Below, one piece after another: positions 18,655 to 60,906 of a DNA stretch of 64,000 nucleotides (the stretch's first letter is position 1; the number at the start of each line of letters is the position of its first letter). The stretch spans positions 1,185-65,184 of the forward strand of contig JACOYJ010000026.1 in assembly GCA_016181885.1 (NCBI GenBank). Direction: 5' to 3'. A model generated the notes under the pieces. The model saw nothing but the letters and a program-made list of their open reading frames with translations, did no database searches and was not told the origin of the DNA. The translations under genes were made by a program, and so were the position numbers. The stretch comes from Candidatus Pacearchaeota archaeon. Lineage in GTDB: Archaea; Nanobdellota; Nanobdellia; Pacearchaeales; GW2011-AR1.

Positions 18655-18830
18655 TGTAAAGTAAACCCTCAATCTTGGCATAAAAAATTACTCACTCCTA
18701 TCGTCGTGTATTTTATTATTAACATTAATGGCAAATCTGCGAATGAAATGAGCAGGTAATTATATTTATTCTTTGCAGATTATTTAAGGAATTAAACTGC
18801 AGAATGTTAAGTTATGAACTGGCTTAACAA
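18655..18830 (+). repeat. interspersed noncoding repeat family 1, copy A (core ~176 bp)
   Basis: More than 85% identity to copies at 44051-44226 and 60665-60906 on this strand, and to reverse-complement copies at 38773-38947 and 29263-29642. Internal hairpins (aatctgcgaat/attctttgcagatt; gttaagt/acttaac). Ends about 41 nt before the sufB ATG. Confidence 0.8.
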
Positions 18831-18871
18831 AATGCAAAAACTTTTATACCCTTCTTAACTATCGTTAAGTT

Positions 18872-20275
18872 ATGGAACAAACGTCAATTAAAATTGATAG
18901 AGAAAACTACGATCATTATGACCAGGAAAAACTTACCTTTAAGTCAGAATCAGGCATTCTCGATGAAAATTTAATTAAAAAAATATCTAAACTTAAAAAT
19001 GAGCCAGAGTGGATGATTAATACACGCCTTAAAGGATTGAAAATATTTCGGGAAAAGCCGCTGCCAAATTGGGGCCCGAGCCTTGAAGACCTGAATTTGA
19101 ACGAAATTCATTTTTTTATGACTCCTGATGCTCAGCAAGCTAGAAAATGGGAAGATGTTCCTAAAGAAATAAAAAACACTTTTGACAGGCTGGGAATTCC
19201 GGAAGCTGAAAAAAAATCTTTGGCCGGAGTTGGGGCGCAATATGAATCAAATGTCATTTATCATAACCTTAAGAAAGAATGGGGAGATAAAGGAGTTGTT
19301 TTTTTAGACATGGACGAAGCAGTTCAGAAATATCCCGAAATGGTAAAGAAATATTTTATGACAACCTGCGTTCCCATCCATCTACACAAGTTTTCAGCTT
19401 TACATGCAGCTGTATGGAGCGGAGGGACATTTATCTATGTTCCGAGGGGTGTAAAAGTTGATATTCCCCTTCAGGCTTATTTCAGAATGAACGCTAAAAA
19501 AGGCGGACAGTTTGAGCATACATTGATAATTGCCGACGAGGGCTCTAATATCCACTACATTGAAGGATGCAGCGCGCCGCAATATCAGGAAAACTCGCTG
19601 CATGCCGGTTGTGTTGAGATTCATGTTTTGAAGGATGCAAGAGTCAGATACAGCAGCATTGAAAATTGGAGCAAAAATGTTTACAATCTTAATACAAAGA
19701 GAGCAATGGTTTACGAAAACGGGATAATGGAATGGGTTAATGGAAATCTTGGAAGCAAGGTAACTATGCTCTATCCATGCAGTATTCTTCTTGGCGAGAA
19801 TTCAAAAACAGATTATCTGGGAATCGCATATGCGGGAAAAGGCCAATATCAGGATACTGGCTGCAAGGTTTATCACTTGGCGCCAAACACATCTTCAAAC
19901 ATTATCAGCAAGGGGATAAGCCTGGGCGGGGGGGTTAGTTCTTATCGGGGACTCATAATGATAAAAAAAGGATGCAAAAACTCAAACGCAAGCGTTAAAT
20001 GCGACGGTTTAATGCTTGACAATGAAAGCAGGGCAATGACTTTTCCAAGCATGGAAGTCGGAGAAAACGACGTTAAAGTTGCCCACGAAGCTGCTGTTGG
20101 AAAAATCGGGGAAGAGCAGTTATTTTATTTGATGTCTCGCGGAATCAGCGAGGATGAGGCTGTAAAGATGATTGTTTCTGGTTTTATCGAGCCTGTTGTC
20201 AAAGAGCTTCCGCTGGAGTATGCAGTTGAATTAAATAAGCTTATTGAATTAGAGATAGAAAATTCTGTTTGCTAG
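18872..20275 (+). CDS. sufB: Fe-S cluster assembly protein SufB
   Basis: Full-length SufB-like sequence (…GCSAPQYQENSLHAGCVEIHV…). Confidence 0.9.
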   Translation: MEQTSIKIDRENYDHYDQEKLTFKSESGILDENLIKKISKLKNEPEWMINTRLKGLKIFREKPLPNWGPSLEDLNLNEIHFFMTPDAQQARKWEDVPKEIKNTFDRLGIPEAEKKSLAGVGAQYESNVIYHNLKKEWGDKGVVFLDMDEAVQKYPEMVKKYFMTTCVPIHLHKFSALHAAVWSGGTFIYVPRGVKVDIPLQAYFRMNAKKGGQFEHTLIIADEGSNIHYIEGCSAPQYQENSLHAGCVEIHVLKDARVRYSSIENWSKNVYNLNTKRAMVYENGIMEWVNGNLGSKVTMLYPCSILLGENSKTDYLGIAYAGKGQYQDTGCKVYHLAPNTSSNIISKGISLGGGVSSYRGLIMIKKGCKNSNASVKCDGLMLDNESRAMTFPSMEVGENDVKVAHEAAVGKIGEEQLFYLMSRGISEDEAVKMIVSGFIEPVVKELPLEYAVELNKLIELEIENSVC

Positions 20276-20276
20276 A

Positions 20277-20687
20277 ATGAACTCAAATATTCATCGCCAG
20301 GAGCTTTTGGATTTATACGCTGAAAAGCCAAATTACGGAGAGCTTATTGGAAAAACCCACGAAATAAATATGAATAATCCCGCTTGCTCAGATTTAATAA
20401 ATGTTCAAGTTGCCATCGATAAAGGAAAAATAATCGATGCTAAATTTTCTGGGGAAACTTGTTTGATAAGCACTGTTTCAGCGTGCGTTTTGCTGGAGAA
20501 AATTAAAGGGATGAAAGTTGCCGATGTTTTGAAGATTGGAAAGAAAGACATTGACAAATTATTGAATGTAGAAGTAATTCCAACCAGAGTTGAATGCGAG
20601 CTGCTTGCTCTTGAGGCATTAAAGGAGGCACTGAATGAAAAATCGCCCAAGCTTGGTCAATTTAAGGAGGCTTTTAAAAATGGATGA
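20277..20687 (+). CDS. sufU: SufU/IscU-like Fe-S scaffold protein
   Basis: NifU-N-like region with conserved Cys (NPACSD, ETCLIS). Confidence 0.7.
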   Translation: MNSNIHRQELLDLYAEKPNYGELIGKTHEINMNNPACSDLINVQVAIDKGKIIDAKFSGETCLISTVSACVLLEKIKGMKVADVLKIGKKDIDKLLNVEVIPTRVECELLALEALKEALNEKSPKLGQFKEAFKNG

Positions 20688-20705
20688 ATTATCCGGAGAA
20701 ATAGA

Positions 20706-21662: not shown

Positions 21663-21663
21663 G

Positions 21664-22413: not shown

Positions 22414-22554
22414 ATAGGCTCGCTTCGCTCGCTTATTTTTTAGATTATAACAATATTGAAGAGCCATTTATTGAATAAGGGGAATGTTAACAATGAGCTT
22501 TTTGAAAAAATTAAACTGCAAAACCTTTTTATACCTCAATAGTTTTTTTAATCC

Positions 22555-23709: not shown

Positions 23710-23716
23710 TACAAAA

Positions 23717-29070: not shown

Positions 29071-29262
29071 AATAAAAAATAAATAGAATTTTTTAATAAA
29101 TCAATCATCTAGAAAATCCACGTCTTCGAGTTCGGCTTCATCTTCTTTCTCATCAACTTCAGTGTATGAATCTTCCTTGTTCATTTTAATCAGGAACCTT
29201 GTTCCTTACCTCATTTTTTGTTAATCCAGATAGATTTTTTTGCTTTTTAAATATTTCTGTAC

Positions 29263-29642
29263 TGTTAAATCAAGTTCATAACTTAACATTCCGTAGTTTA
29301 ATTACTTCATCATTATTGTCGCAAGGAGTTTAATGGAAGAGCATGAAGTTGCAAGATGAAACAATTTCCCTTAGATAAACATTTACCTTAATTATCAAAT
29401 AAAACTAAAGATTGAATGCTAATAAAAACATATTAGGTTAGACGCCCTTCTCTTATCGATGATAAAATGTAATTATTAGTTTAATAATATATTGTTCATG
29501 GATTGCATTTTGTTGGAATATTAATATCCTTTACCATAGCTGCTCATTTCATTCGCAGTTTTGCTGTTAATTATTAATAATAAAATACGCGACAATAGAA
29601 GTGAGTAATTTTTTATGCTAAGATTGCGGATTTACTTTACTG
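29263..29642 (-). repeat. repeat family 1, copy B (reverse orientation; extended ~380 bp with nested insertions)
   Basis: Its ends match the core element. The middle matches the insertion module of copy E and carries a further ~90-bp insertion. Confidence 0.75.
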
Positions 29643-29665
29643 CACAAGAAAAGTTATAAGAAAAA

Positions 29666-38589: not shown

Positions 38590-38772
38590 TGAAAACCTCC
38601 AGCGGGTTTTCTATCCAGCAACCACCGAATCTTTTCTTTGCCTCCGATGGATTCGGACAAAACCTCCGAATTTTTATCAGAATTTTCTTTGCCTCTGATG
38701 AATCCGAATTATTTTTCATTATTTCACCTGTCTGTAAATAGCATAGAAGATATTTAAATGTTTTTAGTTTGT

Positions 38773-38947
38773 GTTAAGTCAAGTTTATAACCTAAAATTC
38801 CATAATTTAATTCTCCCAATAATCTGCAAAGAATAAAGATAATTACCTGCTCATTTAATTCGCAGATTTGTTATTAATGTTAATAATAAAATGCACGACG
38901 AGAGGAGTGAGTAATTTTTTATGTTAAGATTGTGGGTTTACTTTACA
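38773..38947 (-). repeat. repeat family 1, copy C (reverse orientation, core form)
   Basis: Reverse complement of the family-1 core; about 184 nt upstream of the 38589 start. Confidence 0.8.
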
Positions 38948-39752
38948 GTTTGTTAAGCCTGGGGATATAACTTAGGATAAATACCGCTCTACTCACGGCA
39001 TTCAACTTTATAATAGCTTAAATATGCTTTGATTGGCTTATTCGTATAAACTTTGTATAGAAAACCTTACTCAGCCCACCCGCCCAACCCTAATTATCTT
39101 GAACTCCCATGGTTTAGCTTATCATCAACTTGCTAATATTAACCCAACTTAAATAATTGTTTTCACATTATTTTTCTTGAATTAACCTAAATCCTCATTG
39201 TTCAACTCATTTATATTCACCTCGAGAATAATATTTACTACGCATAAAAATATTTTCCCATTAATCCTGTTTTTTGTTTTAGCGGAGCCGAGCAACTTCG
39301 CGAGATGTAGTTTGGAATTAATAACCGAGCGGGGTTGCGAGTAGTGCCAATGGCTGATGCTAGGGAATATAGATGCTGAATAATATAAATATTTAAAAAA
39401 CTAAATGTTTATGGAATTTCGTGGCAATATCCATAGAAAAGATACTGACAATAAGCGTGGGAGAATATGCTAAAAGCAAAGCTTATGATCTCGTCGGAGT
39501 GCACTTTTCTTTACTAACCTGTGACTCGATTGAAATTGCGAATGCGATTGAGGGATTTGCGGAGAAAGTGCCTGACAAAGCCGAGGTAGTCGTAGATTAT
39601 CAAAACAACACAAGCGCGGCTGGAAGGATGGACCGCCAATATTATATTCAGATGTCAGGCACAGCATTAATTCCAAGGAAAAACGTTCCAAGTGCGTCCA
39701 AAGACTTTGTGGGCGGTTCCCCTTAATTAATTCTTTACTTAACAAACAAATA

Positions 39753-43545: not shown

Positions 43546-43546
43546 G

Positions 43547-43855: not shown

Positions 43856-44036
43856 TATGCCTGACATATCTAAAAAACTTCTGGAAAAAATAATTAAACA
43901 AGGCTATTGCAACAGACTTTTTTCAAGATATGAAGTCCATCATGCTGCGCAAGGAAATGTTGATTTTATAGAAAGAAAAAATAAAATTCTTAGAACTTAT
44001 TCTTATTATTCAATTGATGGGAGAAAGGTTTTATGA
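43845..44036 (+). CDS. hypothetical small protein
   Basis: Start taken at MKFNMPD; no domain. Confidence 0.3.
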   Translation: MKFNMPDISKKLLEKIIKQGYCNRLFSRYEVHHAAQGNVDFIERKNKILRTYSYYSIDGRKVL

Positions 44037-44050
44037 TATATTAAAGTATA

Positions 44051-44226
44051 TGTTAAGTAAACCCGCAATCTTAGCATAAAAGATTACTCACTCCTATTGT
44101 CGTGTATTTTATTATTAATAATTATCACAAATCTGCGAATGAAATGAGCAGGTAATTATCTTTATTCTTTGCAGATTATTAAAGGAATTAAACCCTGGAA
44201 TGTTAAGTTATGAACTTGACTTAACA
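44051..44226 (+). repeat. repeat family 1, copy D (core form)
   Basis: Near-identical to copy A; ends 40 nt before the 44267 ATG. Confidence 0.8.
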
Positions 44227-44266
44227 GTATATAAAAGCTTAAATTCTCCATAGGATTGATTTTAAT

Positions 44267-44593
44267 ATGAAAAAAGTAGATATTGGAAGGACAGTTGATT
44301 ATGAAACTTTAGAGAGAGCTTTGCGTAGTGCTGCGGAAAAAGTTGGGCTTAGAGCAACTTTTAGCGACCAATATTCAGAGGGATATAGACTAGGCTCTGT
44401 TCAAGAAACCAAAGCATATTCTCACACAATTGTTAATTTAAGCGGGAGATTTTTACCTGCTATGGAAATTATAATATACGATAAACATCCAACAAATAGA
44501 TTCAGTGTCTGGAGCGGTTTAGGTTGGGGGTTTGCCTCTAAATCAACAGTTAAAGCTTATCTAAGCGCTGTTTCTGAAGCTTTGTCCGTTTAA
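44267..44593 (+). CDS. hypothetical protein
   Basis: ORF only. Confidence 0.4.
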   Translation: MKKVDIGRTVDYETLERALRSAAEKVGLRATFSDQYSEGYRLGSVQETKAYSHTIVNLSGRFLPAMEIIIYDKHPTNRFSVWSGLGWGFASKSTVKAYLSAVSEALSV

Positions 44594-44671
44594 CTAGATT
44601 TTTACCTAGGTTATTTTCCGTGATATCTTCTCGAGAAGATTTTTATGGGGATATCCTTCAGAAAATTTTGT

Positions 44672-45409
44672 TTAGTTAAAAATATTTTTATAAGCAAGTC
44701 TAAAAAATCCTTCAGATTCAATAATTCTGTCTAAGTCAATTGTTTTATTAAGATTCCCGTCTTTATCTACTTGGTAAGAGGTCATATGGTGATACCTCAG
44801 CCCTTTATCATTTAAAACCAATGAATCGGGAATTAAATCATCAATTGTGGCAGGGTTTATTTTTACACCTTCCTTAAGGTCTCTGGCAGTGGTTTCATAA
44901 GGAATCCAAACTCCATCTTTTAAAATTTCAATCCACATATGCCCTCCACCTCCCGAATGAGATGATACAGTACCCGAAGCTAATCTTACATAATTCAACA
45001 AATCTGGTTTTTTAGCAGAATTAGCCAGATAAATAAAATTAGAGTAAGTAAATCTAGAGGTCTCACTACAATCTCCTAATCTACTTTCTAGAAACTCGCT
45101 GTCAGAAAAATTAAATCTAGTCGCACCAATACTAATATACTTTGTAGTCACTGCATGCGCCAATTTCAGATATTCCAACGCAGTTTCTTCTCCTTCACCA
45201 CAATATTCAAACAAATATCCTCCAGTTTCCATACTTTCTTGAATTGCTTCGTTTCTTATCCCCTGTGCACAGTAAAAATAAGAAACGATAGGAACCGCGA
45301 GTCTATCCACAAACAAGGCGAGCAAACCGGTCAAAGCCAAGTTCTTCAGATTTTTCTTTGAGGCTATTCTTGTTAGCAAGCTTTTTTTATTTGTCATTTT
45401 TATCCTCAT
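44672..45409 (-). CDS. transglutaminase-like superfamily protein
   Basis: GDCSE (Cys), GGGGHMWIEILKDGVWIPYETT (His...Asp core pattern H.W.E...W...D/ET), N-terminal TM. Confidence 0.55.
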   Translation of the reverse strand: MRIKMTNKKSLLTRIASKKNLKNLALTGLLALFVDRLAVPIVSYFYCAQGIRNEAIQESMETGGYLFEYCGEGEETALEYLKLAHAVTTKYISIGATRFNFSDSEFLESRLGDCSETSRFTYSNFIYLANSAKKPDLLNYVRLASGTVSSHSGGGGHMWIEILKDGVWIPYETTARDLKEGVKINPATIDDLIPDSLVLNDKGLRYHHMTSYQVDKDGNLNKTIDLDRIIESEGFFRLAYKNIFN

Positions 45410-45504
45410 AGAAAATCTCTATTTAAAAATCTTGCTATTTTGTTATTCCTTAATAGTTATTACAAGAACCAAATATTTAAAAAGAGCGGATTCGAGAAAT
45501 AAAA

Positions 45505-46206
45505 ATGGAAAAAGAACTCATAGATAGAGTAAAGAGAGGTTGTGTTGGATATATTGACCTTGGAGGCAATCTGCATAGCTTTGGCTCAGAGAGAACACGG
45601 GCTTTAGTTCCACACTATTATCTAAGCGCAATTCAACCCATTTCTTTGTTTCGGGGATTGGAAAATTCTCTACATACATACTCTGAAAATAAAAGACTTG
45701 AGGAAAATAAAAGACAGAAGAGAAAAAGAGAGAAATTTGACAAAGAAAACTTAGACAATCTTATAATTTATCATGTCCCATTAAATTTGGCTCAATTGGA
45801 GGAAGAGTTTGAAAGAGATATTAATACTTTTGCCTTAATCAAACGGGAAGCTCGGGATAAAGATGTTTATCAAGAGATAATGGGAATACGCAATAAGAAA
45901 GATTATACTGATGCGGTAATGAGAATTTTTCCAGAGCCATTTTTTATTCATCAAAGAGGTTATGTCCCGCCAAGCGACCAAGGTCGAGGATGTAATACCT
46001 ATTTCTTAGTAGTTGGAGATAGAGGACTAACAAGCGAATTCAGCCAAGAAATAGTAAGAGCTCCTTTGCTTATTGCTTTGGCGGTATCAGAATTAATTGG
46101 AGTTGATATAAATGATCCTTGCGTGACCGAGCCATTCTATTCTAAGAGGAAGTTAATTTTCTTTGATCCTACAAGAAATCCAAAAAAGATTTGCCGTCCA
46201 ATTTAA
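45505..46206 (+). CDS. hypothetical protein
   Basis: ORF only (233 aa). Confidence 0.4.
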   Translation: MEKELIDRVKRGCVGYIDLGGNLHSFGSERTRALVPHYYLSAIQPISLFRGLENSLHTYSENKRLEENKRQKRKREKFDKENLDNLIIYHVPLNLAQLEEEFERDINTFALIKREARDKDVYQEIMGIRNKKDYTDAVMRIFPEPFFIHQRGYVPPSDQGRGCNTYFLVVGDRGLTSEFSQEIVRAPLLIALAVSELIGVDINDPCVTEPFYSKRKLIFFDPTRNPKKICRPI

Positions 46207-46321
46207 TCTCCTTCCAATAGTTTTACCTTGAAAGTCTTTAGCTTATAAATAAGGGCTTATTCTTGACTGGGAAATCAGAAAAAACAATAAAAGAAAATAA
46301 GATCGTTATGAAAAGTAAGGA

Positions 46322-46615
46322 TTAATAATTAGACTCTTGCATATATTCTGTAACTATGCTGATTATTTTCTGAATTGTGATGCTACAATTCTTAAAGTAT
46401 ATTCTTTCTAAAACATTTATCCCCCTCTGCCTAATTACATCACTAATCAAAGCATGTATAAAGGATTGTGTTGCTGATTCCACCCCAGAAAAATCCAGGA
46501 CTATCTTATTTTCATCACCTATGTATTTTAATATTTCGTTTAATCTTATATCTCTTGCAATATCTTTATTTCCTGCAAACGCTCCTGTTTTATCAAATAT
46601 CCTTATCTCTTTCAT
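46322..46615 (-). CDS. STAS-fold protein (DUF4325-like), anti-sigma-antagonist-like
   Basis: About 97 aa; IVLDFSGVESATQSFIHALI pattern typical of STAS/DUF4325. 4-nt overlap with the upstream ATPase gene. Confidence 0.5.
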   Translation of the reverse strand: MKEIRIFDKTGAFAGNKDIARDIRLNEILKYIGDENKIVLDFSGVESATQSFIHALISDVIRQRGINVLERIYFKNCSITIQKIISIVTEYMQESNY

Positions 46616-47580
46616 ACAAACCTCGGATGTTTATATTTTTCTTTTATTTTTTGTTTTCTTGCTTTTTGATAAAAATCTCTAATTAAGTCTAGAAGAGCGT
46701 TAAAGTCAGCATGCTCATCTAAGCATAAATCTATTCCAACTACTGTACCTGACCAATCTGGATAGTTATTATTATATGAAGCATGGTCTTTAATTGGGTC
46801 CGCAACAAGTCTTACTCCTTTATGTTTTGGATTTTTTAGAAGTTTATACATCCCCTCTCCGCTATATATCATAAAGAAATCTCTATCTACTTTTGCAAGA
46901 GATTTTATAAAGAACAACCCGGCTCCAGCATTACTTTCTGTTCCACCAATTTTTGTTGTAGTTCCAGTAATCCCGGGAGTTAAAGCCAACAAAATTGCCT
47001 CGATATCTGTTTTCGGACTATAAGATTGACTTATTGATTTCTTTACCCCTATTCCGCAATCTGCAACTCCGATTCTTATGGTATTACTCTTTTTATAATA
47101 TTGTGCGCATACTATTGCCCCGTCGTCTGAATTAGCATGTTCAAAAACATTTCTTACCAACTCAAAAATAATATATCTAATTGGTTCAACTTTTTTTGGT
47201 TCAGAGTGTAATAAAGGCACCATCTCAGTAATAAATCTATCAAGTTGTTTTGAGTCCTTTATCACCTGTATTGTTACAAATCGCCCTGCAGATTCATGTT
47301 CTCTAATCTTAATCTCTGACTCTAGTCCAAGTATTTTGAATAGGCCCATTCTTTCAAAATAATGCTTAGATATAGCAGTTGGCTTATAAAATTTTATCTC
47401 TTTCCCCTCTCGTCTCATCTTTAAACCAATTGCGCAAACCATTGACAATACAACTGGATGAACTGAGACCCATTTTTGATGTGAGCTTATCTCTAAAACA
47501 TCTGTCTCCAATACATCAAACGCTCTCAGGAAAGGGTCTATATTTCCCAGCCATACACTATTGGGCAAATGAATTCTCAT
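46612..47580 (-). CDS. GHKL (histidine-kinase-like) ATPase, RsbW/anti-sigma-kinase-like, with an N-terminal extra domain
   Basis: N-box ELVRNVFEHAN, G1 GVADCGIGV, G2 GAGLFFIKSL. Confidence 0.6.
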   Translation of the reverse strand: MRIHLPNSVWLGNIDPFLRAFDVLETDVLEISSHQKWVSVHPVVLSMVCAIGLKMRREGKEIKFYKPTAISKHYFERMGLFKILGLESEIKIREHESAGRFVTIQVIKDSKQLDRFITEMVPLLHSEPKKVEPIRYIIFELVRNVFEHANSDDGAIVCAQYYKKSNTIRIGVADCGIGVKKSISQSYSPKTDIEAILLALTPGITGTTTKIGGTESNAGAGLFFIKSLAKVDRDFFMIYSGEGMYKLLKNPKHKGVRLVADPIKDHASYNNNYPDWSGTVVGIDLCLDEHADFNALLDLIRDFYQKARKQKIKEKYKHPRFV

Positions 47581-47802
47581 ACATTCTCTAGATTTAAGGT
47601 ATTTATAAATGCTTCTAAAATACCGAGAATCCCGGTAAAATAAGTAAAACCCTGAAATCTAGGTTAGTTTGTCCTTTACATAAAAGAGGATATTTCAACT
47701 TATTTTAATCGAGACTTTTCGTGCAACGCCTCGTCTATTAACTATTTTTAAGTAATCCTTAATCTTTAAAAAGACTTTTTTCCCTAGCTATTTTATATAA
47801 AA

Positions 47803-52261: not shown

Positions 52262-53116
52262 TCAAACAACCTTCGTCCTGGTTACCTTTCCGACGTTAAT
52301 TCCTTTCTTTATGGTGAAAGCGTGCATATCCCTTGAATGATTAACTCCCCGCATTTTCAAAACCTCAACAAACCTCTGCCTTTCTGACTTTACCTCAATA
52401 TAATAAAGCAGGGTTATGCTGTCTGCCTCAAACTCCGACGGAGAAATCCCCCTATCTTTTCTTCCTGATGGATTGTGCTGGACTGTAAGCAGGCTTGTAA
52501 CATTCCAATTCCTGATAATGTCAAACAGCCCGAGAATTCCCTGCCTTTTTGAAAGCTCATCTTCAAACATAAGTGAAAAACTGGTGAGGCTGTCTAAAAC
52601 AAGCCTTGAGATATTGTACTTAAGAACCATGCTTTCAATTGTTCCTCCGCCTTCGTCCAGCATCATTTTGACTTTTTCCGGAGTGTATTCAAGGAAAAAG
52701 AATTTTCCTGATTTTTCAGCAGCGTCCAGATCCCAGCCGAACTTTTTCATATTTGCATAAAAGTCCTCTTTTTTCTCCTCAAACGTAACATACAAAACAT
52801 GCTCGCCTCTTCTAACCCCCTCAAGAAGATACTGCAGGGCGAAAATTGTTTTTCCGCTTCCGCTTCCGCCGGCAATCAAGTTTATTGACTCTGTTTCAAA
52901 CCCGCCGACAGTCATTTTGTCGAAGCCCCTTATCCCTGTCGGAGATTTTACGGGCTTTTTCTTAATAGGCTGTTTCTTTATTGTTTTTTCTTTTTTATGA
53001 TGTTTTGCAAGTCTTGGCAGTTTTTTAATCATCTTTAATTTTCGGCTGACTTGCATTCTATTTTTTTTAGAGGGCCTGCTTCTCTGTTTTTTCACTTTCT
53101 TTTTTTTCTTTACCAT
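52262..53116 (-). CDS. KaiC/RecA-superfamily ATPase (FlaH-like) with a Lys/Arg-rich ~60-aa N-terminal extension
   Basis: GIRGFDKMTVGGFETESINLIAGGSGSGKT Walker A in the KaiC-like context; the N-terminus is about 50% K/R. Confidence 0.7.
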   Translation of the reverse strand: MVKKKKKVKKQRSRPSKKNRMQVSRKLKMIKKLPRLAKHHKKEKTIKKQPIKKKPVKSPTGIRGFDKMTVGGFETESINLIAGGSGSGKTIFALQYLLEGVRRGEHVLYVTFEEKKEDFYANMKKFGWDLDAAEKSGKFFFLEYTPEKVKMMLDEGGGTIESMVLKYNISRLVLDSLTSFSLMFEDELSKRQGILGLFDIIRNWNVTSLLTVQHNPSGRKDRGISPSEFEADSITLLYYIEVKSERQRFVEVLKMRGVNHSRDMHAFTIKKGINVGKVTRTKVV

Positions 53117-53150
53117 GTTATTCTAAGGTTAAGCTTTCTTTTAAAGTTTA

Positions 53151-54146
53151 TTATATGAATGAAATGCTCTCAAGCAACAGCCCGGAAATTACGCCCTTTA
53201 TTATAAAGAACAAAGTGTAGCTTATTGCGAGCAGCGGGATAAAGAATTTTATCCCTTCTTTTGCCTCACCCTTATTTACAAGCCCGATTACGAAGCAGGA
53301 AATAAAATCAGTTACGGCTATGAATATCAATGAAAAGTAAATCACGAAGTTTAGGGATATTGAAACTCTGCTGAAAGCCAAAGGAAGCGATGATGTAGCA
53401 GCGGTTGTTGTTTCCGGCAGGTTTGCCGAGAGCCCCAGGACTATCTCAACAAGGACAGAGCTGAGGGCGAAAAGAACAGGTGCGCCTACGCCAACTGCAA
53501 AGAATATAAAAATTACATACATCAAAATTGTCGACCTTGATTTTTTTTCTATTATTTCTTTCTCTTTCATGTTTGAAGAAGTCTGCTCAAGCAAGTCAGA
53601 GATGTTCCCGCCGGCTTTCAATCCAGAAATTATGAGCATTATGACTTTTGATATTTTTTCAGAGTCTATCCTCTCGGCCATTTTCTTGAATGCAAAAATT
53701 ATATCCTGGCCTGTTGTTATTTCTTTTCCGGTTTTTAGAATTTCTTTATCCAAGGGGTCAAATTCCGGGCGGGCTGACAGCAAGAATGCGCGGTCTATAG
53801 TTATTCCTGACCTTAGATTGCTGGCCATAAGGGAGATTACATCCGGAAATAAAGACTCCATTTTTTTTATTCTTTCGTTTGCCTTCAAGCTTATTTTAAA
53901 ATAAAAGAAAGTGTAAAGTATGGCAAATACAAGAAGAAACAATAAGAAGCTCTTTTTTGTTATAATCAATATCGACAGTGAAAGCGTTGCGAATATCGTG
54001 CATATAAAAAATATTTTATTGTGGTAGTCTTCCGGCGAAGTGGATATTCCTGCATTTTTTATGTTCTTTGCATAATCGTCCCTGAATCTTCTTGGATAGA
54101 ATTTTAGCGTGTTCATTAAAAACCTACGATTTTTAGAATCCCTCAA
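53151..54146 (-). CDS. FlaJ/TadC-family pilus assembly membrane protein
   Basis: T2SS-F-like domain with 3-4 TM helices and a cytoplasmic domain; operon with FlaI. Confidence 0.6.
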   Translation of the reverse strand: MRDSKNRRFLMNTLKFYPRRFRDDYAKNIKNAGISTSPEDYHNKIFFICTIFATLSLSILIITKKSFLLFLLVFAILYTFFYFKISLKANERIKKMESLFPDVISLMASNLRSGITIDRAFLLSARPEFDPLDKEILKTGKEITTGQDIIFAFKKMAERIDSEKISKVIMLIISGLKAGGNISDLLEQTSSNMKEKEIIEKKSRSTILMYVIFIFFAVGVGAPVLFALSSVLVEIVLGLSANLPETTTAATSSLPLAFSRVSISLNFVIYFSLIFIAVTDFISCFVIGLVNKGEAKEGIKFFIPLLAISYTLFFIIKGVISGLLLESISFI

Positions 54147-55074
54147 GCGATTTTCTTTTTATTACTCGATGAAAATCTTTATCCCGTAAAAACCTACGGT
54201 TTTTATAATCTATTAATCCCAAGAACATTACCTGCATAAATACAACCACAACAAAAACTAAGACAAAAATGAGCTTCAAAATAATCTCGTTCACGTTTAA
54301 TAAAGATGAGATAATTATCAGGAAAGTTATTCCAAGGGAAGGAAGGACAACAGCGATAAGCATATAAAACATGATTAAGGGGTTCAGCTTGCTTCCGTAG
54401 CTTTGAATCTGAATTGTCTGCTCCTCGCTTAAGTTTTTTATCCCCTCTCTGATTACTATGGCCATATCGCTTCCTGACCTCATTCCATTGCTGAGCTGCC
54501 ACAAGACCCTTCTGAAATACTCAGATGTATTCAACTTAGCATATTTTTCAATAGCCTCAATCTGAGAAATGCCGGAGTTCATCTCCTTGGTTATCTTCTT
54601 GAATTCTGCGCTCACTTCGCCGTAATCCGACGTTGCTATATTAGCCAAGATTTCATAAATTGAGACGCCGGAATTTAGCTGAACCATCATGTCTTGAAGC
54701 ACCGGAATCAAATTTTTCTCAATATTCCTTTTCTTGTTCAAAACAAATATTCTTGGGTAATTTCTCTGGTTGAAATATATAAAGAACGAAACAGCTATTG
54801 CTGTGCCTATGCCGAATGTAAAAAAATTGCTAATTTTAAAAATCCCCAAAATAGAAGTTAAAATCACTGAAAAAATCAGTATGTTAAATAAAAATCTCCG
54901 ATAGCATACTGCAAGATACTGCCTGGCAGTCATGTCCACCCCTATTCCCTGCAGATATTCGCTAAGCTTTAGCTTTCTATGGCCTGTCAGCCTCTCAAAT
55001 CTTTTTGCTTTTCTTTTCAGCGCCTCTACATTAGAAATAGTGAACGGTATCTTAAATTCCATATCATTCCTCAT
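54133..55074 (-). CDS. FlaJ/TadB-family pilus assembly membrane protein (second paralog)
   Basis: Same architecture as the upstream gene; 14-nt overlap. Confidence 0.6.
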   Translation of the reverse strand: MRNDMEFKIPFTISNVEALKRKAKRFERLTGHRKLKLSEYLQGIGVDMTARQYLAVCYRRFLFNILIFSVILTSILGIFKISNFFTFGIGTAIAVSFFIYFNQRNYPRIFVLNKKRNIEKNLIPVLQDMMVQLNSGVSIYEILANIATSDYGEVSAEFKKITKEMNSGISQIEAIEKYAKLNTSEYFRRVLWQLSNGMRSGSDMAIVIREGIKNLSEEQTIQIQSYGSKLNPLIMFYMLIAVVLPSLGITFLIIISSLLNVNEIILKLIFVLVFVVVVFMQVMFLGLIDYKNRRFLRDKDFHRVIKRKSLEGF

Positions 55075-56737
55075 TGCCTTTTTTATTTTCCACTATCTTG
55101 CTAATTTGATTTCTTTTTATTATCTCTTTAAGCTTTTCGGGATCCATGTAATATAAATTCATAACCCTTCCCAAAGATTCTAAATCCCTTGCTTTATTTT
55201 TTATGAGCCAGTCAAAAACACTTTTTTTATATTCCAAATTCTTTTTTATCTCAATCTCATCCATTCCGGTGTTTCTGCTTAGCTGATCGAAAAACGAGTA
55301 GCTTTTATTGTGCGGAACGAACTCGTCTTTTTCAGGAACCCATCGGTAGATTAAGTTTGCCATCAGATTTTCCTTTCCCGGCATGAACTCGGCAAGCTGA
55401 AGAACTCGCCTGAACCCTTTTTTTCTATCTCTGAACATAACAACATTTAGATTGACGCTTCCAAGCATCGACGGGGGGACACTTATCGGCGGATTTATCA
55501 TTCTTCTTATTGTTTCGTTGGCTGTATCTGCGTGGACAGTTGCGTAAACTGAGTGACCTGTATGCATGGCCTCAAATAAAACCTCTGCTTCTCTCTGCCT
55601 TCTGATTTCTCCCAAAATAATTCTGTCAGGCCTCATCCTAAGCGAGTTGACTAATAAGTCAAGCATCGAGACTTCCCCCTTTCCCTCGGGATTTGGGGTT
55701 CTTGTTACAAGCGGGCACCAGTACAAAAATCTTGGGAGCATTAATTCTCGAGTGTCTTCCATGCTGATAATCCTATGGTTTGGCGGAATAAATGGCATGC
55801 ACGCATTAAGAAAAACTGTTTTTCCCGAAGCTGTTCCGCCGGAAAAAAGCACATTCATCTCATACTCTATGGCCAGCCATAAAATTGCGGCAATGTCATT
55901 GCTTACTGTTCGGTTTTCCATTAAATCAATAATTGTCCATGGATCTCTCGCAAATTTTCTTATTGTGATTGTGTTTCCTCTTGTGGAAATTGGATAAAGA
56001 ACAGCATTAGCCCTGTCTCCTGTAACAACATGAGCGTCAAGCAGGGGATTTAGGACGCTTATCTGCCTCCCGACCCTTCTTGCAATAATATTTGCATAGT
56101 TTGTTATTTCATCTTCGGATTTCAGCTCAAGATTTGTTTTAATCCATCCATGCCTTTTGTGATAAACTCTTATTTCTTTGCTGTTAACGACAACAATCTC
56201 CTCCAAATTAGGGTCGTTTATCAGAAATTCAATTTTTCCAAGACCAAGCATTTCCTGCATTAAAATACCGACTAAAAAATCTTCAGTTTCTTTTTTTATT
56301 CCAGGAACTTTCTGCTGAATAAGGTTGGCTCCGACGCCGATGGTTGAAACGCTGATTAAATCCTTCCTAATGTTATCAAGAAGGGCCTTTGTTCCTGTTT
56401 TAATCTCTTGCAGATAAAGGACATAAATTTTTCCGTCTTCGGTTTTTTCAATGCTTATATCAACTTTTGCCTTGTCTATTATCAAGGGATATTTTTCTAC
56501 AACCTCTCCTCCAATTTCCTTTATCGAGCTCTCAAGAAAAACCGGCTTTTTTGACTCTTCAATCTCCCTATTTTCCTTTGCTGTTTCATATGCATTAATT
56601 ATTTTTTCAACATGCGCCTCGTTGAAATTCCTGCTTTTAAGAAAATCCCTTATCTTTTTTGGAGTGTATTTCTTTTTTATAGCATCGTGAACCCACTCTT
56701 CCACTTTATCTATCTTCTTCTTTTTTTCAAAAATCAT
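55064..56737 (-). CDS. FlaI/TadA-type type II/IV secretion-system ATPase
   Basis: Walker A FSGGTASGKT, Asp box, Walker B, His box (HTGHSVYATVHADTA). Confidence 0.85.
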   Translation of the reverse strand: MIFEKKKKIDKVEEWVHDAIKKKYTPKKIRDFLKSRNFNEAHVEKIINAYETAKENREIEESKKPVFLESSIKEIGGEVVEKYPLIIDKAKVDISIEKTEDGKIYVLYLQEIKTGTKALLDNIRKDLISVSTIGVGANLIQQKVPGIKKETEDFLVGILMQEMLGLGKIEFLINDPNLEEIVVVNSKEIRVYHKRHGWIKTNLELKSEDEITNYANIIARRVGRQISVLNPLLDAHVVTGDRANAVLYPISTRGNTITIRKFARDPWTIIDLMENRTVSNDIAAILWLAIEYEMNVLFSGGTASGKTVFLNACMPFIPPNHRIISMEDTRELMLPRFLYWCPLVTRTPNPEGKGEVSMLDLLVNSLRMRPDRIILGEIRRQREAEVLFEAMHTGHSVYATVHADTANETIRRMINPPISVPPSMLGSVNLNVVMFRDRKKGFRRVLQLAEFMPGKENLMANLIYRWVPEKDEFVPHNKSYSFFDQLSRNTGMDEIEIKKNLEYKKSVFDWLIKNKARDLESLGRVMNLYYMDPEKLKEIIKRNQISKIVENKKGNEE

Positions 56738-56738
56738 T

Positions 56739-57248
56739 TTAGTTCTTTTCCTTTATTTTTTGCTTGTCAAAACCCTTAAGAGTTATTTCTGGGTCGCTGA
56801 ATGCGGGATATTCTATTGAAACTAGGTCATCCTCCTCAAGTATTTTAGCCCATTCAAGCGCTTTTTCCTTGGGGATGCTGAATGTTTTTGCTATCGCTTC
56901 TAAATGGAGGAAGCCGTTCTCTTCCAGAATTTTGTAAAGAGAATCCATGGGGGTTTCTGATTTTCCCTCTGAAATCTTTATTTTTTTTGTTTGAATCAAA
57001 GCCTCCTCGTTTTTCCTGCCTTTTAGAAATCTGGCATAAGCAAAAATAACTATTGAAAGAAGAATAATCCACTGGCCAATGAAAGCAATTAAAGACAGAT
57101 TAATTCCAAAAGACTGCTTGTCCAAGCCCTTTATGAAAAATCCAGAAACAACCCCGCCAGTTTCGTTGTTGTTAAAGTAAAAAAGCAAATCAATTCCAAA
57201 TATTGCGATTAAAATTACTCCTAATATTAACAGCCTCTTTTTTCCCAT
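56739..57248 (-). CDS. membrane protein with N-terminal TM helices and a C-terminal winged-helix-like cytoplasmic domain; first gene of the pilus-ATPase operon
   Basis: Two TM helices. C-terminal LEAIAKTFSIPKEKALEWAKILEEDDLVSIEY resembles a wH. Confidence 0.4.
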   Translation of the reverse strand: MGKKRLLILGVILIAIFGIDLLFYFNNNETGGVVSGFFIKGLDKQSFGINLSLIAFIGQWIILLSIVIFAYARFLKGRKNEEALIQTKKIKISEGKSETPMDSLYKILEENGFLHLEAIAKTFSIPKEKALEWAKILEEDDLVSIEYPAFSDPEITLKGFDKQKIKEKN

Positions 57249-57324
57249 GCTATTTGTAAAAGCATTTATATAGTTATTTCATTTTTAAATAGCGAAGTAA
57301 TTATATAAACCTTACTAAATTAAA

Positions 57325-57756
57325 ATGGGTGGGAGGAATTTTTCTAGGAAGTCGCAAATTGGCGTCGAGTATATGATTGTTGTAGGGTTTGTCACGTTTG
57401 CGATTCTTTCTGTGTTGACGCTCGCTTATTTTTATTCTGACCAGATAAAGGAAAGCATAAGGCTGAACCAAATTGAGAGTTTTGCAACGCAATTAGTCAG
57501 GTCTGCTGAAGGCGTTTTTTTTTCTGGCGAGCCTTCAAGAACAACAGTGAGATTGTATCTTCCTGACGGAGTTGAATCGATTCAGATTGTATCTGATGCT
57601 GTAATAATCACCACAAACACTGGAAAAGGAAACAAAAATATAAGGGTTTTTGAAAGCAAGGTTCTCATGCAGCCCGGAAGCATAACGCCTTCTGAAGGAA
57701 TAAAAAAACTGACGCTTACAGCGCTTGCCGGAGAAGTTTCGATAATACAGGGTTAG
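57325..57756 (+). CDS. pilin-like protein with class III (type IV prepilin-like) signal peptide
   Basis: MGGRNFSRKSQIGVEYMIVVGFVTFAILSVL: basic N-terminus, Flp-like QIGVEY motif, hydrophobic helix. Confidence 0.5.
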   Translation: MGGRNFSRKSQIGVEYMIVVGFVTFAILSVLTLAYFYSDQIKESIRLNQIESFATQLVRSAEGVFFSGEPSRTTVRLYLPDGVESIQIVSDAVIITTNTGKGNKNIRVFESKVLMQPGSITPSEGIKKLTLTALAGEVSIIQG

Positions 57757-57915
57757 GATTGTAATATATTTCATCATAATTTGTTGTTTTAGAAGTAAGT
57801 TACATCACTTTTAATCTCATATCTAATTATTAAAACTAACAGAACAAACATAGCCACAGCTTCTACACGACATAATTTTATAAACATTTATATAACAAAA
57901 GATAATATTCTTTAT

Positions 57916-58293
57916 ATGAATCAAGCAGTTTTATTCATAATTGCACTTTTAATTCCATTTATTTATTATAGAAGCCTTTATTACATTTATAGAACTTATT
58001 TTAAGGAATCAAAGCTAAGAGCAAGCTCTGGGTTACAGATACATCATTTGCATTATGGAGCCATTATCCTTATTATTACCGCCTTTATCCTGATTTTTTA
58101 TGGCAAGAATAACTATGTCTTGGCTTTATTTGGATTAGGTTTAGGATTAGTTTTAGATGAGTTTGTTCCTGCACTTTTAATGCCTGGAAATAGAAAAATA
58201 GAGTTAGCAGCTTATGAAAAAGGATTTATTCCAACACTAATAATATTTTTATTAATTACATTAACTATGTTTTTTGTTTACTTTGTTTTCTAA
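57916..58293 (+). CDS. integral membrane protein (4 TM)
   Basis: Hydrophobicity only. Confidence 0.4.
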   Translation: MNQAVLFIIALLIPFIYYRSLYYIYRTYFKESKLRASSGLQIHHLHYGAIILIITAFILIFYGKNNYVLALFGLGLGLVLDEFVPALLMPGNRKIELAAYEKGFIPTLIIFLLITLTMFFVYFVF

Positions 58294-58892
58294 GGACAAA
58301 TTTCTTTTTCAGGCACTTCTAAAGTGTTAAAGAAGCAGTCAAGCTCTAAATCTTGACCTTGAAGAGATGCTGTTCCTTGCACAACCCGGAACTCGCCGGG
58401 AGGGAGAGAAAATTCTTCAACTTTTGAGTTTATCTGTCTAAATTCCTGTGATTTTTCTATAAACTTTATTTCTGTTTTGAAATTTCCTGCGGTTTCATCG
58501 TCAAGGTTATGTATTTCAGCTGAACAACTTATTTGCTGCTCCAAGCAATTCCCGCCTGATTCTTGAAGGCAGATTATGTTTTTTACAATTTTCTGAATTG
58601 AATAAGAAATTTGCTGTGTCGGGCAAGAAGAGCCTTCCGAAGAATATTCTCCGCCTCCAGAATCCCTCCCGCTTCCTCCAAAACCGCCAATGGCTAAAGT
58701 AGATTCGTCAATAGGCTCATCATTCTCATTGAAAACATCTTGACCAGCATCTTGATTTTCTTCTTCTGATAAACTTCCAATAGACTTTCCAACATTTTTA
58801 TTAGAGTCATCCTTTACAAAAAGAAAATAAGTGAGTATAATAACAAACACAACCATTATTGCAACTACGAATTTTTTGTTTATGTTAGCCAT
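58290..58892 (-). CDS. secreted protein: N-terminal TM, acidic/Gly-Ser-rich linker, conserved Cys-containing C-terminal domain (paralog of the next gene)
   Basis: Shared motif C..QQISYSIQ.I.KN..CL....C......CSAE.HNLD with the 58893-59540 product. Confidence 0.45.
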   Translation of the reverse strand: MANINKKFVVAIMVVFVIILTYFLFVKDDSNKNVGKSIGSLSEEENQDAGQDVFNENDEPIDESTLAIGGFGGSGRDSGGGEYSSEGSSCPTQQISYSIQKIVKNIICLQESGGNCLEQQISCSAEIHNLDDETAGNFKTEIKFIEKSQEFRQINSKVEEFSLPPGEFRVVQGTASLQGQDLELDCFFNTLEVPEKEICP

Positions 58893-59540
58893 TTAGCTGC
58901 AAACCTCTTTTTTAGGAACTTTAACTGTATTAAATGAACAATCTAAATCAGGAGGAAGGCTTACTGCGAAAGGATTGTAAGAGCTTGTATATTCTCCTCT
59001 TATAGTTTCAAATTCTCCTGGACCGAGCGTAAGTTTCTTAGAAATTGTATAAATAGAATTGTTTATCCCTTTTGATATATCGTAAAAAATAATGTCCAGC
59101 TCAAAATCCCCTGCAACAAGAACATCAAGATTATGAACTTCTGCCGAGCAGTTGAGATATTGTTTGTCGCAGGATTTTTTGATTTGTATTAAGCAGACAG
59201 AATTTTTTTGAATGTCTTGGATAGAATACGAAATTTGTTGGTTATAACAGGAAGGCTGAGATCCTGATCTCCCGGAATCTCCGCCAGAGCTGCTGCCCGA
59301 ACTTCCGTCATTAGAACCAGCTGAAGCATCTCCATTATCGGCATTTTCCGACGAGTCTGAAGGATTTTCTCGAGAATCTCCAAGGTCTTTGGCTTCAAAT
59401 AAGGATTCGATTTGTTCAATTGGATTTTTTCCAGAGGTTTTCCACGAAGACAGGCTTAGAATAACTATCAAAACAGCAACAATAGGGATTGAGCTTAAGA
59501 TAATCCTCTTTAATTTGCTCTTTTTTTCCAAATCTTCCAT
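58893..59540 (-). CDS. secreted protein, tandem paralog of the 58290-58892 product
   Basis: Same architecture; 0-nt spacing to the downstream gene. Confidence 0.45.
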   Translation of the reverse strand: MEDLEKKSKLKRIILSSIPIVAVLIVILSLSSWKTSGKNPIEQIESLFEAKDLGDSRENPSDSSENADNGDASAGSNDGSSGSSSGGDSGRSGSQPSCYNQQISYSIQDIQKNSVCLIQIKKSCDKQYLNCSAEVHNLDVLVAGDFELDIIFYDISKGINNSIYTISKKLTLGPGEFETIRGEYTSSYNPFAVSLPPDLDCSFNTVKVPKKEVCS

Positions 59541-59572
59541 TAAATAACTAAGAACAATATTCTTATAAAGTT

Positions 59573-59815
59573 TTGTTTACTTTAAGAAAGATGGCAGAAC
59601 AGCAAAAAACGGGCTTTCACAATTATGTTCCTTATTTTTTAGTTGATGAAAAAGGAGAATTAATTCCCATTTATGCTATGGCCGATGCCATTACAGAATG
59701 CGCCAAAGTTGGAATTAAAGCGGGGAATTTTCTCTTAGAAGATATTGATGAAATTTTGGAGAAAGGCGGTTTAATTGAAATTCTGAGAAAATTATCTGAA
59801 AAGACTAGAGACTAA
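59573..59815 (+). CDS. hypothetical small protein
   Basis: ORF only. Confidence 0.3.
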   Translation: MFTLRKMAEQQKTGFHNYVPYFLVDEKGELIPIYAMADAITECAKVGIKAGNFLLEDIDEILEKGGLIEILRKLSEKTRD

Positions 59816-60065
59816 CTAATTTTTATCAAATCTGAAATAGAATAGCTCCTAACATGGGGAAAACCATCTACACAAACGCAGGTCATATTTCCATAAGTAA
59901 AAACTACCTCTCCCTTAAGATAAGAATCGTATTGCAAGTTAAAATCCTGTCCTATTGAAATTGCCCTTTTTCTGATTATGACTTTGTCCCTGTGCGCCAA
60001 AAGTTCGGGTGCCATATAAAATTGCTGAAAGAAAGTTTTATAAAGATTTCCATACGAAAAACATT

Positions 60066-60521
60066 ATGAGACATAAATTAATTGGAGATATTGGATTACC
60101 TTTAGCTGTTGCTTTAGCTGTTTTTTCAGCCGGTTACCCTGTAGCATCGAATATGAAATTGCGTAAATGCAACGGCCCTTGCATGGAACAAAAAATACAC
60201 AATGGAGATTTTATATTTTATGAGAGTTTTCCTATGTTAAATAGAAGATTAAATAAAGGCGATATTGTTAGGTCTATTCTTCCAAATAATAAAGAAGAAC
60301 GTATCGTCAAGAGAATAGCTGCGATGCCTGGAGATACCATATGCAATTTATTGCAGGAAAGAGTTTTGGGAGATAGCGAGTATTGGCTTTTGGGGGATAA
60401 TCAGTCTAATTCTTATGATAGCCGATTTTTTGGCCCGGCAAATGAAATTAATGCGAGAGGCTTGTTTGTTTATTGTCCACATGAAAGAAATTTTCTTGAC
60501 AGATTCAAGAGTGCTCATTAA
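60066..60521 (+). CDS. lepB: signal peptidase I, bacterial LepB (S26A) type
   Basis: Catalytic Ser region (ASNMK), Lys region VKRIAAMPGDT, and LLGDNQSNSYDSRFFGP (GDNxxxSxDSRxxG box). Start taken at MRHKLIG; the ORF is open from 60009. Confidence 0.7.
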   Translation: MRHKLIGDIGLPLAVALAVFSAGYPVASNMKLRKCNGPCMEQKIHNGDFIFYESFPMLNRRLNKGDIVRSILPNNKEERIVKRIAAMPGDTICNLLQERVLGDSEYWLLGDNQSNSYDSRFFGPANEINARGLFVYCPHERNFLDRFKSAH

Positions 60522-60664
60522 TCTATTGCATCAAGAATAAAGTTTAAAAATCCTGAAGCACATGTCTTTAAGTAGAGGGCGAGACTAGTTTTCGTTCGTT
60601 TGCGTTAGCAATTGATGGGGCATTTTCGGATGTCCCACCTCTACACTATTCTCTCTTTTATAGC

Positions 60665-60906
60665 TGTAAAGTAAACCAGCAATCTTAACGTAAAAAATTA
60701 CTCACTCCTATCGTCGTGTATTTTATTATTAACATTAATGGCAAGTCTGCGAATGAAATGAACAATATATTATTAAACTAATAATTACCTTTTATCATCA
60801 ATAATTGTTTCATCTTGCAACTTTATGCTCTTCCATTAAACTCCTTGCGATAATAATGTTGAAGGAATTAAACTGCGGATATTGAATTATAAACTTGACT
60901 TAACAA
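60665..60906 (+). repeat. repeat family 1, copy E (extended form, alternative middle module)
   Basis: The 5' ~95 nt and 3' ~50 nt match the core. The middle is replaced by a module also present in copy B. Confidence 0.75.

Follow-up and report, generated by a model that had tools for sequence, protein, structure and literature searches.

What kind of sequence recurs five times within 64 kb of a compact archaeal genome, and why should its copies be found beside the start regions of genes? The question is raised by a 64,000-nt stretch of DNA from a Candidatus Pacearchaeota archaeon (assembly GCA_016181885.1, contig JACOYJ010000026.1, positions 1,185 to 65,184), here called the window. A preliminary description of the window, made from the letters and their open reading frames (ORFs), had pointed to the repeat and had offered two accounts of it: a mobile promoter or 5′ untranslated region (UTR) cassette resembling a miniature inverted-repeat transposable element (MITE), or a family of small regulatory RNAs. 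The evidence assembled here identifies the repeat as a MITE, all known copies of which occupy the same nucleotide position, in the same orientation, at the upstream edge of a sequence resembling an archaeal core promoter, that is, a transcription factor B (TFB) recognition element (BRE) followed by a TATA box.

A repeat family with eight known copies

Pattern searches, a repeat scan and multiple alignment reveal exactly five copies in the window, and neither an nhmmer profile search nor a sensitive blastn search detected a sixth copy or a fragment within the 64 kb. Three copies represent a short form: A (18655..18829, + strand, 175 nt, nhmmer E 2e-56), C (38772..38947, − strand, 176 nt) and D (44051..44226, + strand, 176 nt). 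Copy E (60665..60905, + strand, 241 nt) is intermediate in length, and copy B (29263..29640, − strand, 378 nt) is a long form in which the first T of the element is missing. The places and strands originally given for the five copies were recovered by pattern search, repeat scan, alignment and nhmmer alike, with the edges refined to the coordinates above. The family also holds together on alignment, with pairwise identities of 87.5-90% among the short copies A, C and D, and a 25-nt end motif, GTTAAGTTATGAACTTGACTTAACA, has three matches at ≤3 mismatches, compared with 0.00 expected. Together the copies make up ~1.8% of the window. They span 42 kb and lie only 5-16 kb apart (5.1 kb between C and D), all are intergenic, and the flanks of different copies are unrelated. 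A 14-mer near-match at 63703-63716 falls within a coding region and was set aside as a chance match.

Three further copies were found by scanning metagenomes with a 24-base core pattern. They reside on Joint Genome Institute (JGI) metagenome contigs (L061, L062 and L063) at loci unrelated to the window, and bring the number of known copies to eight. One of these contigs, L063, is a fragment of an archaeal chromosome that carries genes for Rrp4, SBDS, the proteasome alpha subunit and RNase J. In addition, an independently assembled Logan contig (L071, from SRR12113430) begins inside copy E (L071 positions 1-62). This contig end exemplifies how the repeat fragments short-read assemblies of its host; the repeat also inflates searches for conserved upstream motifs in work with metagenome-assembled genomes. 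Scans of viral contigs with the element core and with both ends gave no match, as did a blastn search of phage and plasmid collections with the long copy as query, and the sequence family is absent from the annotated collections searched. A gapped pattern, ATTACTCACT-N35-46-CTGCGAAT, matched 60 times in the genome collection, but these were single matches in unrelated taxa, none accompanied by a second element motif, and were rejected as chance hits of a pattern that is too loose.

Structure of the element

The element has the termini 5′-TGT...ACA-3′, which lie inside a bipartite, imperfect terminal inverted repeat of 27 bp. When the two ends (TGTAAAGTAAA... and ...TTGACTTAACA) are compared as inverted repeats, 18 of 27 positions match, in blocks comprising positions 1-11 and 18-27, with 9/11 matches at the tips. 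Each end is itself a palindrome of the form TGTWAAG-N12-CTTAACA, in which the heptamer TGTWAAG occurs twice in inverted orientation, 12 nt apart. Both internal inverted repeats noted in the preliminary description are present and form hairpins in the predicted fold, the terminal hairpin being the palindromic end of the transposon and nothing more. A run of six T residues is found on the antisense strand in 7/8 copies.

Element lengths range from 175 to 379 nt. Copy E was formerly thought to have exchanged its central module for another, an account that is replaced by a simpler one: E is what remains of copy B after clean internal losses of 48 and 88 nt, an ATGARCA direct repeat flanking the first of the two, and the 176-nt form is shorter still than the 241-nt form. 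Aligned in this manner, the length variants constitute an internal-deletion series that runs from the 379-nt form to the 241- and 176-nt forms. No copy contains an open stretch of more than 36 codons, nor is the longest stretch the same from copy to copy, and a protein-database search with the concatenated open pseudo-frames of the element returned nothing. To judge from its reading frames, the element has no coding capacity.

Target-site duplications and empty sites

Every one of the eight copies is flanked by a 5-bp direct repeat whose sequence differs from copy to copy, as expected of a target-site duplication, and 37 of the 40 duplicated bases match (P ~8e-18 at this base composition). The duplication is perfect at copy C (CAAAC; − strand, 5′ 38948..38952, 3′ 38767..38771), copy D (GTATA; + strand, 5′ 44046..44050, 3′ 44227..44231) and copy E (ATAGC; + strand, 5′ 60660..60664, 3′ 60906..60910), as well as at the copies on L061 (CCTCC) and L063 (CTAGC). 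Four of the five bases match at copy A (+ strand, 5′ AAATA at 18650..18654, 3′ AAATG at 18830..18834), at copy B (− strand, in minus-strand letters 5′ GTGCA at 29641..29645, 3′ GTACA at 29258..29262) and at the copy on L062 (GTTAA/GTAAA).

Sites that lack the insertion are available from the closest relatives with a syntenic sufB region, namely L064 (GCA_053534555.1), whose SufB is 85% identical to that of the window, and L068/L069 (82%); in L067 (84%) sufB occurs in a different upstream context. None of these four carries a copy of the element, and none is present in 79 kb of DNA from relatives. When the MITE and one copy of the duplication are removed in silico, the window becomes colinear with L064 across the junctions of both A and B. 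At site B, the window after excision reads ...TTTTCTTGTGCA|GAAATATTTAAAAAGC..., compared with ...TTTTC-TACACA|GAAATGTTTAAAAAGC... in L064, which has a single ACACA where the duplication lies. At site A, the corresponding sequences are ...ATGTTAA-AATA|CA-AAAACTTTTATA... in the window and ...CTGTTAATAATC|CATAAAACTTATAA... in L064. Copies A and B are likewise missing from L068.

A comparable search at copy D, by way of the closest thermosome homologue, yielded no clean empty site; the relative is rearranged, and only the 5′ flank can be compared (ATTAAAGTAAC versus ATTAAAGTATA). In L070 (positions 1948-2640; thermosome 91% identical) glnA directly follows the thermosome gene and a nucleotidyltransferase gene, whereas the window (43511-47800) has ~4 kb of extra genes, MITE D included. 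A 74-aa ORF at 43812-44036 has a homologue in L070, and the sequence past the stop codon of this homologue (ATTAAAGTAAC) resembles the 5′ flank and target of copy D.

The pattern of divergence among copies is also informative. Within the window, identity between copies is 87.5-90%, lower than the 88-94% that they share with the metagenome copies, which are mutually 95.5-98% identical, and substitutions are spread along the whole element. Such star-like divergence fits independent decay from a master sequence. Because the element combines a lack of coding capacity with terminal inverted repeats, 5-bp duplications, an internal-deletion series, empty sites and copies at unrelated loci, we conclude from its sequence features that it is a mobile MITE; everything by which a MITE is recognized at this level was found, except an autonomous partner. 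The mobile character proposed in the preliminary description is therefore substantiated, most directly by the duplications, the inverted repeats, the empty sites and the presence of copies at unrelated loci in other contigs.

A single register and orientation beside BRE/TATA-like boxes

With a G+C content of ~35%, the window encodes a thermosome (41935-43545), a pilin-like protein with a class-III signal peptide and other archaeal genes. Both SufB and the thermosome show 100% identity to Candidatus Pacearchaeota proteins. Its host is a DPANN archaeon, and its promoters should thus be of the BRE/TATA type rather than the sigma-70 type. In an ungapped alignment of the flanks of the eight copies, anchored at the insertion point, a strong motif stands out on the 3′ side, with little in common on the 5′ side. 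Numbered from the first nucleotide after the duplication, position +1 is B (not A) in 8/8 copies; A occupies +2 and +4 in 8/8, +3 and +5 in 7/8 and +6 in 6/8; further on, there is Y at +7 (8/8), T at +9 (7/8) and A at both +12 (8/8) and +14 (7/8). The resulting consensus, BAAAAAY-N-TWTA, has the sequence character of a BRE rich in A with a TATA box behind it. In 6/8 copies the first base of the textbook archaeal TATA hexamer, YTTAWA, falls at +7 to +9, compared with 2.1% of intergenic positions in the window (P ~2e-9, an optimistic value, as this range of offsets was chosen after seeing the data, yet one that survives any reasonable correction). All eight copies direct the CTTAACA end toward the box, and all do so in one orientation and in a single-nucleotide register.

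The box beside copy A is that of sufB (CAAAAACTTTTATA, 18835..18848, + strand); the sufB start codon at 18872 corresponds to +38, and the box is kept in L064, which has no MITE. Beside copy B, the box of a small acidic ORF (GAAATATTTAAAAA, 29244..29257, − strand) is kept in both L064 and L068. The box beside copy C (TAAAAACATTTAAA, 38753..38766, − strand) lies upstream of a 45-aa ORF (38719-38582) and of a 167-aa ORF, and the box beside copy D (TAAAAGCTTAAATT, 44232..44245, + strand) precedes a 108-aa ORF whose ATG at 44267 corresponds to +36. Copy E adjoins the box GAAAACCCTTTAGA (60911..60924, + strand); a second box at 60936-60957 (+ strand) is the likelier promoter of the pilin-like gene that starts at 60981/60988. 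For four copies (A, D, L061 and L063) the start codon occurs at +36 or +38, which is 29 nt past the start of the hexamer. This spacing is of the leaderless type, as expected for archaeal mRNAs that begin at or near their start codon, and it places the element at about −42 from the start of these leaderless-type genes. At B and C, a small ORF comes after the box, separated from it by a short leader that carries a Shine-Dalgarno-like AGGTGA/GAGGTAA.

Because sites A and B keep their boxes in relatives that lack the MITE, the boxes are best read as native promoters that lie outside the duplication, and not as cargo of the element. The pattern is one in which the element sits upstream of the putative promoter and leaves it intact. 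A strict version of the motif occurs at six sites in the window, 3/6 of which are occupied, and many looser promoter-like boxes are unoccupied, indicating that the family is far from saturating its targets.

These observations bear on two of the functions first proposed for the repeat. As a mobile promoter it would be expected to carry a promoter box, and a motif search finds no YTTAWA on the sense strand of any copy; the BRE/TATA box is outside the element and is present in relatives that are devoid of it. A 5′ UTR cassette finds no support either, since the repeat lies upstream of the TATA box and hence outside the 5′ UTR of the downstream gene. The sequence gttaagttATG at the sufB start, which had been taken to re-use the terminus of the element, is native, as MITE-less L064 and L068 have agttaattATG and cgttaattATG, respectively. 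One extra 11-mer match to an AT-rich element of 176 nt is probably at about chance level; many 13-19-nt chance matches occur in the window. The promoter-proximal position itself is real, being found at all eight copies, and is better explained by target-site choice on the part of the transposition machinery.

Alternative explanations for the fixed position

If the element were instead a domesticated regulatory cassette, it would be kept at its exact position for its effect on the downstream promoter. The palindrome GTTAAGT-N10-ACTTAAC, situated 5 bp from the BRE, could be an activator or repressor site, the antisense T6 run could stop divergent transcripts, or the element could insulate the promoter from read-through. 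Such a role would accord with the position and orientation fixed in 8/8 copies, with the palindrome that abuts the BRE, with the T6 run in most copies and with the ~90% identity common to two populations, and it has a bacterial precedent in the Correia elements (PMC10969869). The downstream genes, however, share no function, the same promoters occur without the element in relatives, and the star-like divergence, with substitutions spread along the element, is that of neutral decay. Moreover, selection alone would need repeated random insertions at one nucleotide position. We therefore consider a regulatory function unlikely as the primary explanation, although it may be a secondary role. Still less probable is untargeted insertion followed by purifying selection, in which any insertion that damages a gene or a core promoter is lost. 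All copies are indeed intergenic in a compact genome, with ~10 kb of intergenic DNA in 64 kb (~16% noncoding). Yet in the original spacers an insertion would have been tolerated over ~100 nt or more upstream of the boxes, and the eight insertions nonetheless share register and orientation, an outcome whose probability by chance is 2 x 0.5^8 ~0.008 for the orientation, beside the P value of ~2e-9 already given for the position of the box. Removal of harmful insertions cannot yield a single-nucleotide register.

The repeat had also been proposed to be a family of small regulatory RNAs, and a structured RNA gene or cis-regulatory leader would account for two predicted hairpins, for a sense-strand fold with a z-score of −2.46 (−1.5 for the antisense strand) and for the intergenic, multicopy distribution. 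These single-sequence z-scores are modest, though, and the consensus fold, in which covariation was sought, contains no compensatory change in any of its 51 predicted pairs (0/51), with a covariation term of −0.64 kcal/mol, in a comparison that has little power at ~90% identity. A search of Rfam at the gathering threshold identified only a tRNA-Gly elsewhere in the window, and under relaxed thresholds no match above chance level came up for copies B, C and E. On the sense strand no conserved promoter box is found upstream of or inside the element, which, lying upstream of the TATA box, falls outside the leader of the gene. Its arrival by transposition is evident from the duplications and empty sites. 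An RNA family is accordingly a very improbable reading. The chance that a region upstream of a promoter was multiplied by segmental duplication or gene conversion, or that the repeat is an assembly artefact, is close to negligible. Identity above 85% and a position upstream of genes are what such duplication would produce, but the copies end abruptly, at 5-bp direct repeats that vary from copy to copy, and the flanks are unrelated; an artefact is contradicted by independent assemblies, three metagenome contigs and one Logan contig, that contain the same element.

As a whole, the data are best explained by a MITE inserted at promoter edges in one orientation and mobilized by an rve-type DDE enzyme acting in trans, a reading to which we assign a probability of roughly 0.78. 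Several points weigh against it. No transposase domain was detected with Pfam among the 37 window ORFs tested or the six tested in L063, no autonomous partner turned up, and we infer the enzyme family rather than observe it. Five copies in 64 kb, down to 5 kb apart, are contrary to target immunity of the Tn7 or Mu type. The target rule is derived from a small sample of eight copies, the P value for the hexamer offset is optimistic for the reason given above, and all of the boxes are putative promoters. Selection for a function of the element beside the BRE may contribute to the fixed position. Finally, the box adjoining copy E may not be a working promoter, as the second box, 25 nt downstream, fits better. 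If it is not, which seems probable, this favors direct reading of the sequence over recognition of an active pre-initiation complex.

A proposed mechanism of target choice

Transposons with TG...CA ends and 4-6-bp duplications are typical of the IS3, IS481, IS21, Mu, Tn5053 and Tn7 families and of retroviral integrases. On the strength of just these two features, its TGT...ACA ends and its 5-bp duplication, the element would be mobilized by a transposase of the rve (retroviral integrase) type, supplied in trans and making 5-bp staggered cuts, with IS3, IS481, IS21, Mu, Tn5053 and Tn7 as candidate families. Integration might proceed by a cut-and-paste or a copy-in route, in either case at a target cut with a 5-bp stagger. 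The transposase, or an accessory target selector, would read the BRE/TATA sequence, or DNA bent by the TATA-binding protein (TBP) and TFB, from one side, and recognition of this one-sided kind would fix both the register and the orientation of the insertion. In a genome so dense in genes, insertion at the promoter edge would give a parasite a "safe haven" where it does no harm. Side effects on regulation are conceivable, in that upstream operators would be displaced by ~180 bp or the terminal palindrome would be placed beside the BRE.

The more specific proposal, that the element is mobilized by machinery that reads the archaeal core promoter or a TBP/TFB-bent BRE/TATA complex and integrates in one orientation at a fixed nucleotide of its upstream edge, is tentative, and we would not bet on it in this exact form; an rve-type transposase with a Tn7- or Mu-like target selector is one possible version of such machinery. 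Because all known copies share one orientation and one nucleotide position upstream of the core promoter, the data nevertheless suggest a transposon that chooses archaeal promoters as safe landing sites. Were promoter-reading machinery to prove responsible, Archaea would have their first described DNA transposon guided by promoters, and prokaryotes a counterpart to Ty3/Tf1 targeting, with rewired upstream regulation of many DPANN genes as a by-product. Confirmation of the insertion pattern by a full census would also provide a system for asking how a transposition complex recognizes an archaeal promoter or TBP/TFB complex. The copies would then serve as natural markers of promoters and leaderless start sites of transcription in uncultured Pacearchaeota, and the element would be a candidate for inserting DNA next to promoters in a defined orientation.

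Relationship to known elements

MITEs are known in archaea, DPANN lineages included (PMC11602168; PMC10969869), and a census from 2024 counted thousands of them across archaeal genomes, those of DPANN being some of the most densely populated (PMC11602168). Like the MITEs of Sulfolobus (SM1-SM4), Halobacterium and Haloquadratum and those of the census (PMC11602168; PMC10969869), the present element is short, noncoding and multicopy. Its density of five copies in 64 kb (~78 per Mb) is of the same order as the 100-146 per Mb reached by all MITE families combined in the highest DPANN totals (PMC11602168). As a MITE, it is a new family of a known kind, and its occurrence in a DPANN genome is unsurprising. 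What stands out is the precision of eight independent insertions into different 5-mers, in the same orientation and register, each with the promoter intact. A limited literature search found no report of single-orientation, single-register insertion beside a BRE/TATA box in the archaeal MITE reviews and census.

Promoter-proximal MITEs of bacteria, such as the Correia elements of Neisseria (Correia repeat enclosed elements, CREE), resemble the present element in their length of ~100-180 bp, their location mostly just upstream of genes and their possible influence on expression. They differ in having sigma-70 promoters and integration host factor (IHF) sites of their own, a TA duplication and both orientations, whereas the element described here has no promoter box on its sense strand, a native promoter outside it, a variable 5-bp duplication and a fixed orientation. 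A closer parallel in target choice is provided by the Tn7 and Tn5053 families, in which a TnsB/TniA transposase of the rve type acts together with an AAA+ regulator and a TnsD/TniQ selector. They share with our element the 5-bp duplication, the TGT...ACA termini, the single orientation and the fixed distance from a sequence recognized on one side. Archaeal members of the Tn7 family, reported in DPANN lineages, have a 5-bp duplication, a single orientation and one-sided target recognition (10.1101/2025.07.27.667033). Unlike the 176-nt, non-autonomous element, with many targets defined by a generic promoter motif and copies 5-16 kb apart, Tn7 and Tn5053 elements are large and autonomous, use a single attachment site or a handful of them in each genome, and display target immunity. 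No tnsA, tnsB, tnsC or tniQ gene is present among the window ORFs tested.

Integration into a safe haven just upstream of transcription start regions is shared with Ty3 and Ty1, at genes transcribed by RNA polymerase III (Pol III), and with Tf1, at RNA polymerase II (Pol II) promoters; the integrases of these elements are of the rve type, with TG...CA ends and ~5-bp duplications, as at the ends of the element. They are retrotransposons guided by contacts with transcription factors, and the present element is a DNA MITE. Insertion of IS5 upstream of glpFK and flhDC in E. coli is likewise specific in position and orientation and leaves the core promoter intact, but it involves an autonomous insertion sequence at single loci, with a 4-bp duplication, and it activates the promoter. 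The combination of a generic core-promoter motif as target, a single-nucleotide register, a single orientation and a 5-bp duplication is closest, by analogy, to the logic of Tn7-type site selection joined to that of Ty3/Tf1 targeting; no description of this combination for an archaeal element was found in our limited literature search.

Genes and other features near the copies

Genes downstream of the copies encode SufB, a 27-aa acidic peptide, a 45-aa and a 167-aa protein and a 108-aa protein of no known function, a pilin-like protein and a methyltransferase. Copy B had been placed between two converging genes, which is incomplete, because a conserved 27-aa acidic ORF (MNKEDSYTEVDEKEDEAELEDVDFLDD, 29101..29184, − strand) with its own BRE/TATA-like box lies downstream on the same strand. 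Its counterpart in L064 is MSEENLYPVVEENEDETELEDMEFLDD (window 29101-29225, L064 16215-16345, both − strand). A 36-nt leader of this ORF, GGATTAACAAAAAATGAGGTAAGGAACAAGGTTCCT, is 100% identical in the window and L064, despite the 85% identity of SufB, so that conservation is stronger in the leader than in the coding sequence.

Copy C had been described as ending ~184 nt before a start codon, a measurement that overlooks a 45-aa ORF (38582-38719, − strand) preceded by a Shine-Dalgarno-like AGGTGA. This ORF is located between MITE C and the 167-aa ORF, whose start it overlaps (ATGTCTGA). The ~470 nt upstream of copy C (38948-39420) contain no convincing ORF and give no Rfam match at E up to 1; a G-rich patch, gggttgggcgggtgggctgag, is present on the minus strand near 39060-39090.

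Copy E is found at the edge of a gene cluster (52262-61821) that resembles those of archaeal type-IV pili or archaella and encodes a KaiC-like ATPase, two T2SSF-like membrane proteins, a T2SSE ATPase, an S26 signal peptidase and proteins with class-III signal peptides. Situated 20 nt upstream of this copy is a 73-nt sequence (60572-60644, + strand) with three hairpins closed by a 7-bp stem, GTAGAGG/CCTCTAC, and a minimum free energy (MFE) of −32.6 kcal/mol (z = −5.06). It is absent from the tRNA calls and matches nothing in Rfam even at E up to 5, and it may represent an undescribed small RNA or a tRNA-like remnant.

Elsewhere in the window, positions 7679-15291 hold a compact cluster for NAD biosynthesis and salvage (QRPTase-like protein, NAD synthase, NadA and NAD kinase), which is partly syntenic with L064. 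A second, unrelated repeat of 78 nt, with 87% identity between its copies at 40305-40382 and 54114-54191, contains two hairpins. Its minus-strand sequence terminates in ...TTTAATG, exactly at the start codons (ATG) of two genes, one with a CBS domain and the other T2SSF-like; either a leader common to both genes or a further small mobile element is conceivable.

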